A stretch of DNA of 63,467 bases, counting the filler, from Myxococcota bacterium (GTDB lineage: Bacteria > Myxococcota > Myxococcia > Myxococcales > Myxococcaceae), in NCBI GenBank assembly GCA_049322255.1. It is 3 parts of 3 records of this genome, joined end to end, with 100 filler letters (N's around TTAATTAATTAA, not from the genome) between each part and the next. Parts side by side here need not be neighbours in the genome. Positions count along the whole stretch, not along the records: positions 27,185 to 52,621 come from JBMORE010000055.1; 2 more parts are not named here. One strand, written 5' to 3'. How positions within the stretch are numbered: the first letter of the stretch is position 1; every line of letters begins with the position of its first letter. The position numbers are program-made. This document shows positions 27,201 through 42,200 of the stretch, piece by piece.

Positions 27201-30200
27201 CAAACGCTTTCGCCGACTCGCAACACGCTATGAAAAGACAGCTCGAAACTTTCTCGCACTCATCCACCTCGCGTGCATTCGCATGTGGATCAATTAGGGA
27301 CATCCCCTAGGACCCCCAACCATGAAGACAAGCAAGGACGCGAGCAGGTTGCAAGGGTGCTCGCACAGGCGATTGAACTGCTCGGCCGAGCGGCCTTCGT
27401 CACGAGCGGAGAAGACGTGCAGGCAGGGGAGCGTCTGTTCTCTCTTGCCGGTGGAGTCTTCGATGAAGCCAAGGAGTTGGGCTTCTCAGTAGCGGTGGAA
27501 GTCGGGAGCGCCGGGGCGAGCGAAGCGAGCGGAGGCGCCCTTCCTGTGCTGTGCGAAAGGCACGGCAAGGCGCTTGATGCGGACGCGAGGCCGCTCGGGC
27601 TTTGCTTCTTCTGCGCGCTGGAGGTGCAGACGAAGCAGCGTCGGGAGATTGAGCAGCTCCGGCGAGCGCTTGGCAGGCGCACCGACGAAGCGGACGCGCT
27701 CGCGCATGAGGTTGCGCGGGTGTCGGCGATGGTGGCCACGGTGGAGAGGGAGCGCAACGACGCGCGCAAGGAGCGCGACGCGGCGAAGCTGCTCGCCGAG
27801 CGCTTTCTCGAAGCGGCGACCGTCGCGGGAAAGGCGGTGTCGCCATGACCTCGCCATGGGAACAAATCGACAAGATGCGGAGGGCGCACGGCGAGCTGAC
27901 CTCGTGGATGGCATCAACGGTTCCGCACTGGGAGCTAGCAGAGCCAGTAGGCGCAAACTACCGAGCGATACGCAGGGTGAGCGGTGAGCTGCGGCACGAC
28001 GTGAGGGCGCGAACGGCGGCCGAGCTTAGAGGGGCAATTGAGGCCGAGCTCGCCAAGGGGGCGCGGCCATGAGCGCGCGACAACTGACGTTCGAGGACGT
28101 TCGCGCGGACTACGGGAGGCGCAAGAGCAACAAGGAGGGCTTGCGCGCGCTGCTCGCTGATGGGCGATGGCACGGCATCCGCGAACTGCACGAGGTCGCG
28201 GGCTGGCGGTACGGCGCGCGCATCTTCGACTTGCGCGGCGAAGGGTTGGTGATTCATCGCCGGCCGGTCGGCGCGGGGCTGTACGAATGGCGATGGAGTG
28301 CAGCGCGCGGCGTTGATCAGGAGTGCGACGCAGGTTGCTGCCTGGCGCGGCCGGCGGGAGGGGAGGTGTCGGCACCATGAGCCACCTACCCTTATTCGAG
28401 TCGTTCAAAGCCGAGTCGTGTCAGCCGGGGCGGTGTTGGCTCTGCGATGAGCCGCTCCCATCGCGACCGGCGAACCGGCGCGGCCGGCGCCGCGAGACGT
28501 GCGGCCGGGGCGCGTGCAGGAGTCTCTATCAGTCGCTGTACGGCATCGCGCGCCGGGCGCGGGAGGTGAGCGCGCATGGGTAAGAGCACCATCAAGCCGG
28601 AAGACCGGGAGCGGTTCACCCGCGAGCTAATGCGGGTGCTCGATTCCATCGAAGAGACGGAAGAGGCGCGCAAGATTGCGGCGGCAGACTTCCGCCAAGA
28701 GCTGGCGAAGCTCCACGAGCGGGCGCGTCACTGGCGCGCGCTGCTCGCCGGCAGGAAGGGCGAGCAGTTGGAGTTGCCAGCCGAGGCGGAGACATGAACG
28801 CCCGCTTTCGAGTCTTCGGGCGCTTCAACGGGGCGCCGGCCGCGACGGTGATCGTCAACCGAGCATCGGGCATCATCACCGTTCGCCCGCTGCGGCGCCG
28901 CAAGGTCTACGAGCTGCCACTCGCGTTCGTGGCCGAGCTGGTGATGTGGCGAATCCTCAAAGCGGAGGCGGCCGAGAAGAGGGCGCGCCGGAAGGCGAAG
29001 CGATGAACGCCAGCGAGCTGAAGGAGGCACGGCGCGCGACGGCCATCGTTGCGCGCAACCTGATGTTGACTGCGCTATCACCTCGCGCGCCTGGGCCGAC
29101 GCGGGCGGCAGCGGGCCTTGCTGGGCTGTTGTTGGCTTGGGCGGTGGTCGAGTCGAGGACGCTTGAGCCAGAGCCGACCGACCGCGGAACGCTCAAGCGC
29201 GCCAAAAACGACCGATTGTGACGAGGCCGGCAGAAGCGAGTTAAACGGCTGAATTCTCGTGGTGGCTCGCAGGATGGCTCAGGAGGGGTTTTTGACGAGC
29301 GGGGCGGCCGACGCGTCATCGGCGCCCCGTTCGCGCTTCCTACGCCAAACCTCGCGGCGCAGCGTGGCTTCTGAAAGGCTGTTCGCCTTGGCCACGGCGG
29401 CGCAGGGCTGGCCGGCTTCCACGAGTTCAGCGGCGGCGGAAAGGAGGATGGGTGAAACGCGAGGCCGACCGAGCTTCTTTCCCTGGCGGCGCGCACGTTC
29501 GAGGCCGGCGCGGGTGCGCTCAATCAGCCGGTTTCGCTCCTGCTCGGCGACCCACCCGAAGATTGCGACCAGAAGCTTGCGCACAGGGCCGGAGGTGTCG
29601 AGCCAGGGTTCGCGCACGCTGAGAACAGGAACACCAAGCTCGTCAAGTTCGAGCACCGTGGTGATTGCTCCAAGCATCGAGCGGTGCAGACGGTCAAGCG
29701 CCCACACCACGACGGCGCGGCGGCGGCCGGCGCGCGCGTCGGTCATCAGCGCATCGAGCACCGGACGATTTTTCGCGGCGCTCTCCTGTTCCTCGTACCA
29801 AACCGGCTCGAAGCCTCGAAAGCGGGCGAATTGCTCGACTTCGGCGCGTTGGTTCTCAACCGTCTGTTTGTCAGTGCTCACACGGAGATACACCGCGGCA
29901 GGTTGTTTGGTGGTGTGGAGTGCCATAGACTTCCTCCATCATGGAAAAACCAGAGTGGTTGAGCCTGAAGACGCAGGGCGTGAGAGTGGACAAGCAGGGC
30001 CGGTGTGTGCTGCCGGCGAAGCTGAGGCGGGAACTGGGCATCTTGCCTGACGAGGTGTTGGTAGCTTGGGCGCAGGACGGCCGAATCTTGCTGGCATCGC
30101 AGGAAGAGGCGTTCCGCTACATCGGAGCGCAGGCCAAGAAGGGGAAGAAACGTGGTCGCACTCGCTGATGTTCGCGCCGTCGTGGATGCAACGGCGGTGC

Positions 30201-39200: not shown

Positions 39201-42200
39201 TTGAGGCCGCGCGTGCGCATCCTCAAAGGCGGGGTGGAGCTGGCGCGCATCCAGCCGGCCGGTGCGCCTGGCCCCGAAGGTGGGCCGCGCTGGGGGCTGG
39301 TGCTGGCGGTGAGCGCGGGCGTGCTGGTGCTGGGCGCTGTCGCCTGGGGGGTGCTGCGATGAGTCGCCGCCGCAAGAAGAGTTCGCCGCCGGGCGAGGGC
39401 ATCCGCAAGACGCGCACCCGTAAAACGCTGCGCCAGGTGGGGAGCCGCAAGGTGGAAACCACTACCAAGACGAGCGAAGTCATTTGCACCGGCGAGGGGG
39501 AGTTTTGCCGCAAGCTGCGGCGGATACTGGGGCGCGGGGCCAAGGTGCTGTTGGAGCCGGTGTAACCGGAGGTCGTCATGCTGCGAGTGTTTGCCATCGC
39601 TCTCGGCGCTGCGCTGGGGGCTTTCGTGGCCGCCGAGCTGGTGCCCAGCGAAGCGGAGCTGAAGAAGGCGCGTCTGCGTCGCCGGGAGCTACTCCAAGAC
39701 GCGCAAGCCGCCATCGAGGCCGAGCTGGCCGCCATGGAGCTGCAGAAGGCTCAGGAGGCCGCCAGGGTGCCAGCGGCGGGGTAGGCCATCGGAGGGGCGG
39801 AAAAGTGCGCCAAAAACGTCACTGCGGAGTTTTGGCGAGACGGGGCACTGCGGCCCGTTATTGCTTCTGGAGCTGGACGGTCAAAGACTGGAGGCCTCCG
39901 CTTGGCTGGAGCGTGAAGGACCCTGAAACGAAATCGGCTTCGGTGGGCTTGTATGAGAGCACGGATGAAACGGTGTCGTCGGAAAATGCATCAATATCGA
40001 AGGCCTGAAACTGAAACCCGGTGGTGAGCAGGTCGCTCGCCTTCGCGGTGCAGCCGCCGGAGTTCCATGTTGGGTTGTAGCTCGACGCCTCGGGAGTGGA
40101 GCTGTCGAAGGTTGTGGTGCTGAACGGTGGGCAGTCGAGGCGGATCACCACGTCGGGCGCGCTGTTGTCGCCGTCCCAGGAAGAGCCGTTGTTGTTGGGG
40201 GTGATGGTCGCGGCCGTGGGCTGTACCTTCCACATCGAATCCGGGTCAACACCGCACGTCTGCTCGACGCGGCAAATCTGGTTGGCCGAGCACGCGGCGC
40301 ACGCGGAGCCGTTCTTTCCGCATGCGGCGGCAGTGCTGCCGGGCTGGCAGGCGCCGCTCAGGCAGCAGCCGGCGCAATTCTGCGCGGTGCAGCCGGCGAC
40401 AGAGCCACCACCACCGCCGGCACCGCCGCTCCCTCCGGCGCCGCCCGTGCCGCCGCCGGTATTTCCGCCATCGCCGCCGCACGCGAAGAGAGAGAAACCA
40501 AGAAGAGACAGGGAAAGAAGGCGCATGATGGAAGCTCCGGTTTGAGAGGGAAAACAGCGGCCGGGAGGGCTAGCAATCTGTCGGGCGCTTGACAAGTGGC
40601 TTCGCGGCCGGGCAGTGTGGCGGCCAACTGAATAGGCAACCGCTCGGTTGGATTGCGGCCTCCGAGTGGTGGTAACAGCGTAAGCGCCTTGGGCGCGTGC
40701 GCGTTCGAAGCTTGGAAAGGCCCTCCGGGGCGGGTGCCGCAATCACCCAAACCGGCGGGCCTTTCGACTTTGGAGCGTGAATGTCCGCTGTTCTGCCGTT
40801 CGTCCCCAAGCTGCCGGCGGGGGCGGGAGTGCCTACAGGGTTGGCGTTGCCTGAGTTGTGGCGGCAGTGGTGGCCCACCACCGGCCAGCGCATGGCCAAG
40901 AATACGCAGAAGGTGTACCGGCGCACCGAGGCGCTTTCGCACTCCCTGCCTTCGCACCCCTCCGTCTTGGACGTGGCGCACTGGCTCGCCGCGCTGGGGC
41001 GCATGGGGCACGGCGCCGGCACTGCCGAGCTGCGCCGTCAAGTGCTGGCCGCCCTCTACTCCTGGGGCATGTCGGCGGGGCTGGTGTCCGCCAACCCCGC
41101 CGCGCTGTGCAAAGGCATTCTCCACCGTCCACCCCGCGCCGACATTCACCCCGGCGTGCGCGAGTTGCTCGACGCCTGGCCGGCGCTGCTTTCCGCCTGC
41201 GCCACCGAGCGCGAGGCGGGCTTCTTGGGTGTCCTGCGCTTCGCCGGCCTACGTGAAGAAGAGGCGCTGGCCATGCGCGCCCGCGACGTGTTGCAGGCCC
41301 AGGAACCTTGGGGCCTTTCCGTCATGTACCAGCGCCCCCACGTCAACGACCTGGTGCGCGTCGCCGAGTGCAAGGGCCGGCGCGGGCGAGACTTGGAGGT
41401 GCGCCCCGAGCTGCGCGCGCTGCTCGCGCCGGTGTTGGCCCTGCCCCCGGCGGTGTTGCGCTTCGGCACCCGTTCTGCGGAACGGGTGAAGCGCGAGGTG
41501 GCCTGGCTCTTCCCCTTCCGTGAAGGAGAGCTACGCAAGTTCGCCGCCCGTCTGCGGGAGGTGGCCCCCGAGGCGCTTCTGCCCCGGCGCCTGTGGCACC
41601 ACTTCCGCCGCGCCTTCGCTTACGAGTTGCGCGCCGCTGGCGTCGCCATCGAGGACATTCGCGACTTGCTGGGGCACGAGTCGTCATTGACGACCGAAGG
41701 CTACTGCGGGCGCGTCCTGGGGCGCCGGGTGCGGCGCGGCATCTTCAACCCGCTTCTGGGTGGGAAAGGGCACCCCACCACCGAAGCGGCTTCTATCCGG
41801 GTTGGCAGTTCTAACCCTGATAGAAACGTCCCAAGTGCCCGCGGAGAAAGCGAAAATGAGTGAGGTAACAAGCTGGGGGACTAGGATTCGAACCTAGATA
41901 GCCAGATCCAGAGACTGGCGTCCTGCCTTTAGACGATCCCCCAAGATCGCATCAATTCTTTGGTTTCTTCTTCTCCTTCTTCTCCGCCGAGACGACGAAG
42001 ATTCTAACCTCGTCGTTCGCCTCGTAGATGTTCAAGCCCTCCCACCCTTTACCCGAAGGGTTGACGATGTGCACCGCCTTCACGCCCGGCTGGTTGATGA
42101 TCGCCCTCCGGGGGAAGGCTCCGGGCGCGTACACACCCTTGTAATATTTGAGCGTCTCTTCCCAGTTCTGCTTGGTCCGGTACCGGTTCTCTCCCACCTT

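Follow-up and report, generated by a model that had tools for sequence, protein, structure and literature searches.

What kind of element lies at the 3' end of a tRNA gene in this myxobacterium, and is it complete? The window, i.e., the whole stretch of DNA analysed here (63,467 nucleotides), holds a ~14.5-kb block that a preliminary description had reported as 31 mostly tiny, same-strand genes and had read as an integrated double-jelly-roll (DJR) virus of the host. We recovered the same block as a provirus of 14.6 kb (27307-41886) integrated at the 3' end of tRNA-Gln(CTG), with ~32 ORFs, mostly small, at 27309-41863 and nearly all on the + strand. The low rate of family matches stood too, the exact count being 6 of 32 ORFs with a PHROGs match at E<=0.01 instead of 7 of 31. 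The capsid fold, the packaging ATPase next to it, the lysis and integration genes, the precise att ends and the dozens of relatives with conserved gene order all point to a provirus. We therefore uphold that reading and consider the element to be very probably a temperate, tailless DJR virus (Varidnaviria) that infects a myxobacterium and whose dsDNA genome is circular and ~14.6 kb long. Its virions and their internal membrane are predicted from the genes alone.

Of 401 genomes searched in the phylum, 31 contain homologues, which are integrated at tRNA-Gln or dif and have swapped replication and lysis modules, including four kinds of lysin in the same region. Two relatives lie between two dif-like sites (L034, 12.7 kb; L042, 18.3 kb), and there is also a tandem pair 12.1 kb apart. 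Moreover, pN was below pS in all 8 gene-pair comparisons, one of which rests on only 2 changes. The element is one of a group of viruses that are common among myxobacteria and are overlooked by standard searches.

Attachment site and the interrupted early gene

The integrase end adjoins tRNA-Gln, as first described: the right att core (17 bp, 41870..41886, +) overlaps the 3' end of tRNA-Gln(CTG) (41872..41943, -), which is also the target in L035 and L070. The opposite end begins with the end of a non-viral IS (27185..27306, +) comprising a transposase C-terminus, read by eye and which we take to be of IS5 type, and a 14-bp terminal repeat (27293-27306). It is followed by the virus-side remnant of the left att core (27307..27312, +), made of the CTAG target duplication and 2 nt. 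The preliminary description had found no direct repeat of the tRNA end and had suspected a cut element or a lost left att site; both points fall, as the repeat is present on another contig, C90, split by the IS. There, the core remainder follows the IS, the tRNA-Gln 3' end sits precisely at the IS junction, and the sides from C90 and from the element's own contig (C55) together restore the 17-bp core with a score reached by 0 of 200 shuffles. Hence, the provirus is complete, but with an IS5-like element in its left att core this copy is probably trapped in the chromosome and unable to excise. For the same reason, the idea of a small integrative vector does not suit this copy, a poor candidate, and intact relatives would serve better.

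That C55 continues into C90 beyond the IS is an inference: the IS terminal repeat with CTAG begins both C90 and C116, the latter offering a competing joint for C55 with the same IS end, and we saw no read that crosses the IS. A 902-bp unitig of depth 91 ends at 27310, and a 14,620-bp unitig terminates at the IS on one side and at the tRNA on the other. The depth of the element (16.5) is about half that of its flank (30.8), not higher, and the unitig joins listed for the contigs include no circular joint. Among relatives, L070, from another host family, has the same att core with a flanking tRNA-Glu, and that element is flanked by a direct repeat of 17 bp with the same end point as the right core here. 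The att copy of L035 is degenerate (121 of 200 shuffles score equally well), the repeat of L036 is marginal (2/200 shuffles), and no convincing one was found for L033, L037 and L050.

When attP is rebuilt in silico, a frame of 188 aa runs open across the junction. Its body (27309..27848, +), with a Cys/His motif and a coiled coil, lies at the left end, and its start codon, preceded by GGAG and followed by the rest of its first 8 codons (41856..41880, +), lies at 41856 across the att site. In the excised circle, the integrase and the early genes form one run, the first early gene starting just before attP. This frame is open in all three tRNA-Gln elements, and two of them have an ATG in frame 25 nt ahead of the core: L070 shows the same distance and an open frame, and L035 keeps the frame open across att but has its upstream ATG out of frame. 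As the start codon lies beyond the att site, integration separates the first early gene from it. This cut may, together with a divergent regulator, help to silence the lytic program. The regulator, a MerR/excisionase-like HTH gene (30483..30725, -; family F6 8e-11) divergent from the late operon, belongs to a family whose members match HTH_17/MerR, and itself gives a BldC-like match (0.006). No promoter was located in the element.

An AbrB/MazE-type antitoxin and a PIN (VapC-like) toxin (29941..30562, +; Pfam MraZ 6e-5, PIN 2e-13; phrog_4681 5e-6) form a pair that would stabilize the provirus; a PIN-like pair was seen by eye in the same place in L070. The HTH gene and the AbrB-PIN pair, like the penton and spike candidates below, are absent from the earlier description.

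Serine recombinase and replication

Six small overlapping early genes (68-103 aa; 27845..29221, +) include an HTH-like ORF (28069-28380), with homologues in L036 (E 0.001) and L070, and a Cys-motif ORF (28377-28583), and no replication protein was recognised among them; none of the six matched the Rep families of relatives. The earlier caveat that the element lacks a replication gene therefore holds, and we found none in four similar relatives either. Instead of a recognisable replication gene, this subgroup has a resolvase with a res-like site. The small serine recombinase of resolvase/invertase type with a C-terminal HTH (29279..29926, -; Pfam Resolvase 1e-36), recognised as a serine recombinase from the outset and matching phrog_125 (2e-42), is 32-57% identical to copies in 5 relatives. 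At its 3' end lies a 98-bp res-like site with inverted outer arms (29200..29297, -), which is kept in 10 aligned loci. Its exact pattern occurs in 4 of 401 genomes, always at such elements, and the site is absent at 9 recombinase matches without virus genes.

One could argue that the capsid and ATPase genes are genuine and that the Rep-less subgroup, this element included, consists of replication-defective remnants or satellites needing a helper, e.g., a dif-type relative. Rep is indeed missing from all five integrase-plus-resolvase elements, while dif-type elements fill its slot with proteins of HUH or HTH type; the att of this copy is interrupted by an IS and there is no sign of amplification, L070 is a deleted remnant, and split matches in L066 suggest frameshifts. 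We nevertheless hold this to be unlikely: five host genera from two families share this layout without Rep, their genes are full-length and they fall on separate branches of the capsid tree; moreover, both the resolvase and its site are conserved, and no second element of the family that could act as helper was found in this genome.

We give considerably less credit to the proposal that the serine recombinase, which sits in the Rep slot of relatives, is itself the initiator of rolling-circle replication at the 98-bp site. The covalent 5'-phosphoserine cut of serine recombinases leaves a free 3'-OH, which could prime rolling-circle synthesis; the gene shares its slot with Rep beside an HTH gene, the two distributions are near-complementary (no recombinase in 10 loci with the full dif motif), and a conserved cis site accompanies it. 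Yet L039 and L065 carry both recombinase and Rep, L039 keeping the site as well, and L070 keeps the site without the recombinase gene. Moreover, nothing sets the protein apart from ordinary resolvases with an HTH at the C-terminus, and the arms of the site resemble Hin/res-type half-sites. We favor a model of a complete virus in which the excised circle would be copied by some probably host-dependent route, and in which the resolvase and its res-like site would keep the copies monomeric, as XerCD/dif would for dif-type relatives.

Capsid protein, packaging ATPase and late genes

The 456-aa major capsid protein (32721..34091, +) has no match in PHROGs, Pfam or NCBIfam, as previously stated. Its DJR fold was reproduced with a deeper alignment (124 rows; pLDDT 96.3, pTM 0.93), the barrels covering residues 1 to ~325. 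Foldseek returned STIV (4.9e-12), PRD1 (3.7e-11), FLiP (4e-9) and PM2 (6.5e-9), and VIA-align over 48,161 chains gave PRD1 P3 at Z 16.4 (rmsd 4.1, 287 aligned) and PM2 P2 at Z 16.2 (3.1, 245), the best 12 rows being all viral DJR proteins (Z 9.7-16.4) and the best cellular one reaching Z 8.7. A trimer model of residues 1-325 scored 0.80 (best control, 0.01; pLDDT at least 89; contacts agreeing at least 89% between runs), above a mark reached by 20 of 30 proteins whose solved structures are pairs and by 1 of 23 whose solved structures are single chains, a result that the model may owe to likeness to solved capsomers. The extra C-terminal domain of ~130 aa occurs in all 124 aligned rows, is as conserved as the barrels and is absent from solved relatives.

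The capsid gene adjoins that of a 215-aa genome-packaging ATPase of the FtsK/HerA superfamily (31921..32568, +) in 21 of 21 loci compared. The assignment of this ATPase is borne out by phrog_2666 (1e-18), Pfam DUF87/HerA (6e-7) and the Walker A, Walker B, RH and Q motifs of its alignments, and its profile matches B204 of STIV2 (6e-10) and STIV (3e-9), with large HerA proteins alongside. That a non-viral genomic island or integrative plasmid combines a cellular DJR protein (DUF2961/GH172-like) with a HerA-type helicase is scarcely credible. Cellular DJR enzymes do match the capsid model (Z 8.1-8.7), large HerA proteins score as high as B204 against the ATPase profile and no capsid family matches in sequence. 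However, viral capsid proteins score far above cellular ones (Z 16.4 at best), the 215-aa ATPase stands alone as B204 does, and the genes for endolysins, fibre-like proteins and membrane proteins are conserved together in the order of a virus.

The late genes of the provirus are rich in membrane proteins, 12 of 18 + strand ORFs from 31073 to 39784 having a hydrophobic 19-mer. Upstream of the ATPase gene lie an 85-aa ORF and a pre-ATPase membrane protein (30819..31924, +; start uncertain, 31073 or 31226). The latter has one hydrophobic segment, and its slot is filled by family F7 in 10 of 21 loci and by F9 in 10 others; by position only, it would correspond to PM2 ORF h or PRD1 P10 (PMC9502842). 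A 44-aa protein between the ATPase and capsid genes (32565..32699, +), predicted from hydropathy to be a membrane protein, is in a PM2 P7-like position (PMC9502842), and most relatives have a 34-67-aa ORF there. Two more predicted membrane proteins (222 and 88 aa; 34101..35046, +; hydropathy) follow the capsid gene, the larger one belonging to family F4, found in 13 of 21 loci.

No penton or spike had been recognised before; we propose candidates for both, the penton assignment being weak. The penton (vertex) candidate (35057..35680, +), with an alignable ORF in this position in 17 aligned loci, has a small all-beta N-terminal domain modelled mostly at pLDDT at least 90 (whole protein, 64.9). 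Chain O of the PR772 capsid is its best VIA match (80 aligned at rmsd 2.9), with a Z of 7.2 that is within the range of common folds; PM2 chain L reaches Z 5.6, and Foldseek gave no match at E<=0.001. The 431-aa spike/receptor-binding candidate (35680..36975, +) is fibre-like (PHROGs tail fibre 2e-4, virion protein 5e-3), its atlas neighbours being viral fibre-like proteins at TM<=0.41. Late small proteins, mostly membrane ones (36972..39784, +), surround the endolysin noted earlier, which is of the M15 family (37800-38438, +; start uncertain; Peptidase_M15_4 1e-10, phrog_6523 1e-16). A lipoprotein-like cargo gene, identified by reading the sequence (39858..40529, -; signal peptide, Cys, Gly linker; no family match), precedes the tyrosine integrase that had rightly been placed at the block end (40781..41863, +; phrog_1 1.4e-19, Pfam Phage_integrase 6e-7), whose catalytic motifs appear intact by eye. 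In the virion, capsid trimers would form an icosahedral shell around a membrane to which the many small membrane proteins contribute, penton and spike would occupy the vertices, and the ATPase would package the DNA before the endolysin lyses the cell.

Comparison with known viruses

The label "tectivirus-like" applies to the fold only. Tectiviridae have a protein-primed DNA polymerase, a terminal protein and a linear genome with inverted ends. The element does share with this family (PRD1, PR772, Bam35, GC1, Wip1) its highest VIA Z (PRD1 P3, 16.4), the best match of its penton candidate (a PR772 capsid chain) and many small membrane proteins, but it has no gene for a protein-primed polymerase or terminal protein and is integrated with direct att repeats. 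Having neither such a polymerase nor inverted terminal repeats, and with the layout and lifestyle of circular PM2-like or STIV-like viruses, it works like PM2/STIV-type proviruses and is not a tectivirus.

With PM2-like viruses (Corticoviridae/Vinavirales, including Vibrio int-type and dif-type DJR prophages) it shares the capsid fold (PM2 P2, Z 16.2) and the gene order of pre-ATPase protein, ATPase, 40-50-aa membrane protein, capsid, membrane proteins, spike and lysis, an order described for these viruses and proviruses with swappable Rep and lysin (PMC9502842); a size of 12-18 kb and two integration routes, integrase or dif (PMC12715192), are further points in common. In contrast to them, it has no sequence similarity to the P2 families, another host phylum, capsid proteins of 429-488 aa in its family with an extra C-terminal domain (269 aa in PM2), and a subgroup without Rep but with a resolvase, in which the first early gene spans attP. 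The STIV group (Turriviridae and the archaeal/bacterial STIV-like proviruses of Yutin et al. 2018) provided the best Foldseek capsid match (4.9e-12) and, with B204, the best viral ATPase match, and some of its members have tyrosine integrases and PIN/MazE genes (PMC5894146); the element differs by the lack of sequence-level capsid similarity and adds the extra capsid domain and an endolysin.

The element shares its host group with Mx1, Mx4, Mx8, Mx9, Mx alpha and MV-1 to MV-6. Known myxophages are linear dsDNA viruses with mostly tailed particles according to a review (PMC6070905), and Caudoviricetes make up 777 of 790 vOTUs in a 2026 survey. The statement that all described myxophages are tailed was inexact, however, since Mx alpha (genome ~80 kb) has tail-less particles of ~35 nm (PMC6070905). 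The claim of a first DJR family of Myxococcota is not contradicted by the literature searched: Yutin et al. 2018 name no myxobacterial member in their main text or two of their supplements, and the main text of the 2026 survey, a preprint, does not mention jelly-roll, Varidnaviria or tectiviruses. Finally, mycobacteriophage BPs has attP within its repressor gene and myxophage Mx8 within int (PMC4557955, PMC6070905), so that there, as here, the att site lies inside a reading frame and integration alters a gene. In our element, in contrast, the part lost on integration is the beginning of the first early gene (start codon and initial codons) rather than the 3' end of an integrase or repressor gene, a putative switch.

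The capsid protein and the virion module

The preliminary description proposed a double-jelly-roll (DJR) fold for the 456-aa protein encoded at window 32721-34091, and our improved model agrees with that proposal. A full HMMER scan gave homologues forming 133 clusters at 50% identity, from which 124 near-full-length sequences were aligned, short fragments being left out. The model built from this 124-row alignment (pLDDT 96.3, pTM 0.93) was placed by Foldseek closest to the capsid proteins of STIV (4.9e-12) and PRD1 (3.7e-11), followed by those of FLiP and PM2, and viral structure models agreed with this ranking. 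VIA-align against 48,161 chains returned viral DJR proteins in all 12 top rows, with Z scores of 16.4 for PRD1 (rmsd 4.1, 287 aligned), 16.2 for PM2 (rmsd 3.1, 245 aligned), 14.6 for STIV, and 13.6 for FLiP, the top cellular match reaching 8.7. The predicted model is therefore that of a DJR major capsid protein, as in Varidnaviria. A trimeric capsomer, also typical of Varidnaviria, is predicted as well: three copies of residues 1-325 scored 0.80 versus 0.01 for the best control. Among proteins solved as pairs, 20 of 30 attain this mark, and among those solved alone, 1 of 23. The trimer runs had a contact agreement of at least 89% and a pLDDT of at least 89. Likeness to solved capsomers may account for this result.

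Beyond the two barrels, all 124 rows contain an extra domain (residues ~326-435) that is as conserved as the barrels (0.39 each). The PRD1 and PM2 alignments to the model stop at residues 324 and 318, respectively, and the whole-protein VIA search of the 48,161 chains gave no clear match to this C-terminal domain. As judged from profile and similarity searches, the capsid family is isolated: the 456-aa ORF had no match in PHROGs, Pfam, or NCBIfam, the 124-row profile matched none of the known capsid families in the PDB, including the STIV capsid protein and PM2 P2, and no Pfam capsid family (P2_N and P2_C included) matched the window protein or the 52 homologues scanned out of 123. Among GenBank phages, tblastn gave no match for the capsid protein and none for the ATPase.

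The 215-aa protein at 31921-32568 belongs to the FtsK/HerA superfamily of packaging ATPases found in Varidnaviria and carries Walker A, Walker B, RH, and Q motifs; its profile matched STIV2 B204 at 6e-10, several large HerA proteins scoring equally well or better. We compared 21 loci (20 regions fetched first plus the window), to which 11 further capsid loci were added later. The ATPase and capsid genes are adjacent in all 21, and the order in the window is pre-ATPase membrane protein, ATPase, 44-aa membrane protein, and capsid. The penton candidate (35057-35680) has alignable counterparts in the 17 loci aligned. Most of its N-terminal beta domain has a good model, and VIA matched this domain to a PR772 capsid chain in the top row (Z 7.2) and to PM2 chain L (Z 5.6), both in the common-fold range, while the model had no Foldseek match; we take these two chains to be penton subunits. 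The 431-aa ORF at 35680-36975, our spike candidate, is fibre-like. A hydrophobic segment occurs in 12 of the 18 late ORFs, which would lend indirect support to an internal membrane.

Of 32 ORFs scanned between 27273 and 41863, six matched PHROGs at E<=0.01 (serine recombinase, antitoxin, ATPase, fibre-like protein, endolysin, and integrase), Pfam added a PIN domain, and relatives revealed a small HTH gene (30483-30725, minus strand). Scans of the element for promoters and terminators stayed at chance level. A lipoprotein-like cargo gene (39858-40529, minus strand) runs against the late operon and possibly serves superinfection exclusion; in three relatives (L035, L036, and L037), small secreted-looking ORFs adjoin the integrase in a similar orientation.

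Ends of the provirus and a gene spanning the attachment site

The provirus (27307-41886) lies at the start of C55, a contig of 25,437 bp and one of the three that make up the window, beside tRNA-Gln(CTG) (41872-41943), the 3' end of which faces the tyrosine integrase. No direct repeat of the tRNA end had been recognized in the preliminary description, which also raised the possibility of an element cut by the contig end. Neither point holds, as the missing att side is on another contig, C90. C55 starts with one end of an IS5-like element, closed by a 14-bp terminal repeat plus CTAG, and the other IS end forms the start of both C90 and C116. On C90, the tRNA-Gln 3' end directly follows CTAG, and joining C90 to C55 without the IS restores a 17-bp repeat of window 41870-41886, with a score reached by 0 of 200 shuffles; the C90-side 15-nt part of the core occurs twice in the genome. 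Because C116 has the same IS end, the C90-C55 join is one that we infer. The arrangement is that of a tRNA-integrated prophage, with the tRNA 3' end repeated on the far side and the core split by the IS. With a direct att repeat at both ends, the element, a unit of 14,574 bp, is therefore complete, and the position of the IS within the att core should block excision. Altogether, we regard the provirus as real, complete, and probably locked in place by the IS.

The same tRNA-Gln(CTG), a perfect 17-bp repeat, and the same end base were found in L070, a decayed relative from another host family. In both L070 and C90, tRNA-Glu(CTC) lies beyond the left end. On C90 (region 1-2500, locus L058), this tRNA occupies 1028-1099, and at ~1953-2429 a fragment resembles the N-terminal domain of an integrase; owing to these two features, the left att site may be an island hotspot. 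For three other relatives (L033, L037, and L050), att repeat scores were not above those of shuffles.

A 14,620-bp unitig from the probable source run covers 27281-41900 at a depth of 16.5, the right flank has a depth of 30.8, and the 902-bp IS unitig has a depth of 91. The lower depth of the element may mean mixed strains and is not to be read as a share of cells. Two single-base differences were seen in the right flank (42658 and 43190) in the source-like run, at about twice the element depth, likewise hinting at mixed strains. Among the joints listed from the probable source run, none was a circular joint of the element, and joints with 20- to 22-nt sides were rejected as chance matches.

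The att site appears to lie within a gene. An ATG at 41856, preceded by GGAG, stands 25 nt ahead of the CTAG of the core and, via the virtual attP, opens a frame that runs on into the ORF ending at 27848 and encodes 188 aa. In L070, an ATG with GGAGG occurs at the same 25 nt, and the open frame of 148 aa encodes a homologue of the window ORF at 28069. In L035, the att of which is degenerate, the corresponding frame extends over 249 open codons into the first early gene, and the ATG, at a distance of 33 nt, is out of frame. Thus, in two of the three elements at the tRNA-Gln site, the first early gene loses its start on integration, from which we infer that the att-split gene may act as a switch. 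In the parts of the reports covered, attP lies within the repressor gene of BPs or within int of Mx8 (PMC4557955, PMC6070905); the location of att within a gene is alike, whereas the gene and the gene end affected differ here.

A widespread family and its replication

With scoring limited to four candidates in each genome, the capsid profile had matches in 31 of the 401 genomes from the phylum, counting that of the host. They include 24 of the 171 genomes of the host family, 5 from the rest of the order, and 1 outside the class. A weak match in G219 (7.7e-5) was discounted, no element genes surrounding it. The host genome showed no further element of the family with this profile. Several metagenomic contigs of 11 to 16 kb carry homologues, and a pattern scan of JGI metagenomes gave at least one contig (2.7 kb). 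Pattern scans of IMG/VR found no free virus genomes, and those of GTDB yielded nothing for the single protein and one named locus for the query A1; such scans are insensitive at this divergence, so these results do not demonstrate an absence of free genomes. No terminal overlap was found in the four short genome contigs tested. One further locus (L107, G230:C31) has an integrase, a serine recombinase with a res-like site, an HTH gene, and an ATPase and no capsid-profile match; we consider it a more divergent or broken member overlooked by this profile.

The host of the window element is taken to be a myxobacterium: the G+C content of the element (67.7%) is close to that of the genome (66.5%), the glutamyl-tRNA synthetase-like gene to the right of the element has 70% identity to its counterpart in the genome carrying the Archangium violaceum locus L060, and both capsid homologues with names are from Archangium. 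A simple scan of the host genome found no CRISPR arrays. On another contig (window 55559-55658), ARAGORN reported a tRNA-Thr(CGT) of unusual length, 100 nt.

Module types are scattered over the capsid tree, and all 8 comparisons gave a pN lower than pS. L031 and L032 (G354:C3), tandem proviruses 12.1 kb apart, have nearly identical capsid genes and unrelated replication protein (Rep) candidates, one of HTH and the other of HUH type, suggesting recent module exchange. Lysins across the family are of GH19, M23, M15, and glucosaminidase types. Several relatives carry DNA-modification genes (L036:15056-15841, L035:15640-17031, L048, and L050), namely, DpdA (6e-92) and Dam-type and C5-type methylases. 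Two divergent elements lie back to back in L044 (G157:C6), on a deep branch of the capsid tree, and no integration module was recognized there. A full dif-like motif adjoins 8 of the 21 loci and 2 of the 11 further capsid loci, and dif-like sites bracket L034 (12.7 kb apart) and L042 (18.3 kb apart). The host genome has a dif-like site at G000:C66:7221.

Most members have a 370- to 580-aa protein ahead of the HTH gene, either with HUH motifs or of HTH type; these types were assigned by eye, since the proteins had no Pfam or NCBIfam match. The window element and L033, L035, L036, and L037 have an integrase and a serine recombinase, without Rep and without dif. The Rep families of relatives detected no Rep in the window element, a search that a small or divergent Rep could escape. 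At the 3' end of the recombinase gene (29279-29926, minus strand) is a 98-bp site with inverted arms (29200-29297). Its exact pattern was found in 4 of the 401 genomes; it had been written from three of them, and in the fourth it lies ~1 kb from a capsid fragment. In five more virus loci, the recombinase is followed by a relaxed form of the pattern, which is absent at nine recombinase matches without virus genes; this form is present in L035 and L039 and absent in L033 and L065. As L039 carries both a Rep and the recombinase-plus-site cassette, the site as a marker of Rep-less elements only was rejected, and we interpret the cassette as a resolvase and its res site, whose role would be to keep circles monomeric where XerCD/dif is unused. 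The circle itself might be copied by host-driven replication, through dependence on a helper, or by a rolling circle primed by the recombinase. In L109 and L110 (G075:C86 and G187:C107), a close serine recombinase adjoins a tyrosine recombinase without virus genes, the pair in L109 being beside tRNA-Phe; we regard these pairs as another small element type.

Significance and relation to known viruses

Almost all of myxobacterial virology concerns tailed phages. The parts of the open full-text literature covered contain no description of DJR viruses, Varidnaviria, tectiviruses, corticoviruses, or tailless prophages in myxobacteria. The string "myxo" is absent from the main text of Yutin 2022 and of the 2021 Varidnaviria phylogeny (PMC8328091) and, in the portion of Yutin 2018 available to us, from the main text, two supplements having PDB template names only. 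In the parts covered of a 2026 survey, 777 of 790 myxophage vOTUs are Caudoviricetes and the other 13 are unnamed (10.64898/2026.09.14.751636). The earlier statement that all described myxophages are tailed went too far: particles of Mx alpha are tail-less, according to the portion of the literature consulted, so the label "first tailless" would be wrong.

We conclude that the provirus is a member of a widespread myxobacterial lineage for which we found no description. A far-reaching version, which we consider rather unlikely as a whole, would make it a new lineage of Varidnaviria, at the level of a family or an order, that is common in myxobacteria, has escaped the profile libraries searched, and has an extra conserved capsid domain. 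In its integrase-type members, integration would serve as the lytic off-switch by detaching the beginning of the first early gene, and replication would proceed without a known initiator, possibly with the serine recombinase and its site as rolling-circle starter. With carriage by 24 of 171 genomes of the host family and 133 clusters at 50% identity without any Pfam, PHROGs, NCBIfam, or GenBank phage match, the lineage reveals a blind spot in prophage detection, and it extends DJR viruses to another phylum. With Archangium violaceum Cb vi76 and Archangium sp. Cb G35 as cultured carriers, induction and cryo-EM are feasible, and the role of the extra capsid domain, Rep-less replication, and the att-split early gene as a switch become testable. 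Moreover, the integrase/att pair and the dif-type att sites are possible integration tools for myxobacteria.

From the preliminary reading as an integrated tectivirus-like DJR virus, the DJR provirus stands on its fold, ATPase, and att ends, and the tectivirus identity is rejected. Tectiviridae encode a protein-primed family B DNA polymerase and a terminal protein, neither of which is present here (no polymerase match among the 32 ORFs of the complete element, the longest being 456 aa), and have a linear genome with inverted terminal repeats, in contrast to the direct att repeats at a tRNA and the integrase of the window element. With the STIV group (Yutin 2018), of which it may or may not be a member, the element shares an ATPase resembling STIV B204; its capsid protein has no match to the STIV capsid protein in the PDB. 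PM2-like viruses have the order pre-ATPase protein, ATPase, small membrane protein, and capsid in the part of the source covered (PMC9502842), and the Vinavirales morphogenesis order (ORF h, ATPase, P7, capsid, membrane proteins, and spike) is matched here by position and hydropathy. The capsid protein is not related in sequence to PM2 P2, the likeness being in fold only, and a Rep of the Vinavirales kinds (HUH, Rep_trans, wHTH initiator, or polymerase) was not recognized in the window element, relatives having HUH-motif or HTH-type candidates assigned by eye. The integrase/dif duality of the family is the same as that of Vibrio DJR prophages, as given in the part of that report covered (PMC12715192). 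By analogy, the window element would work like temperate viruses of the PM2 and STIV types.
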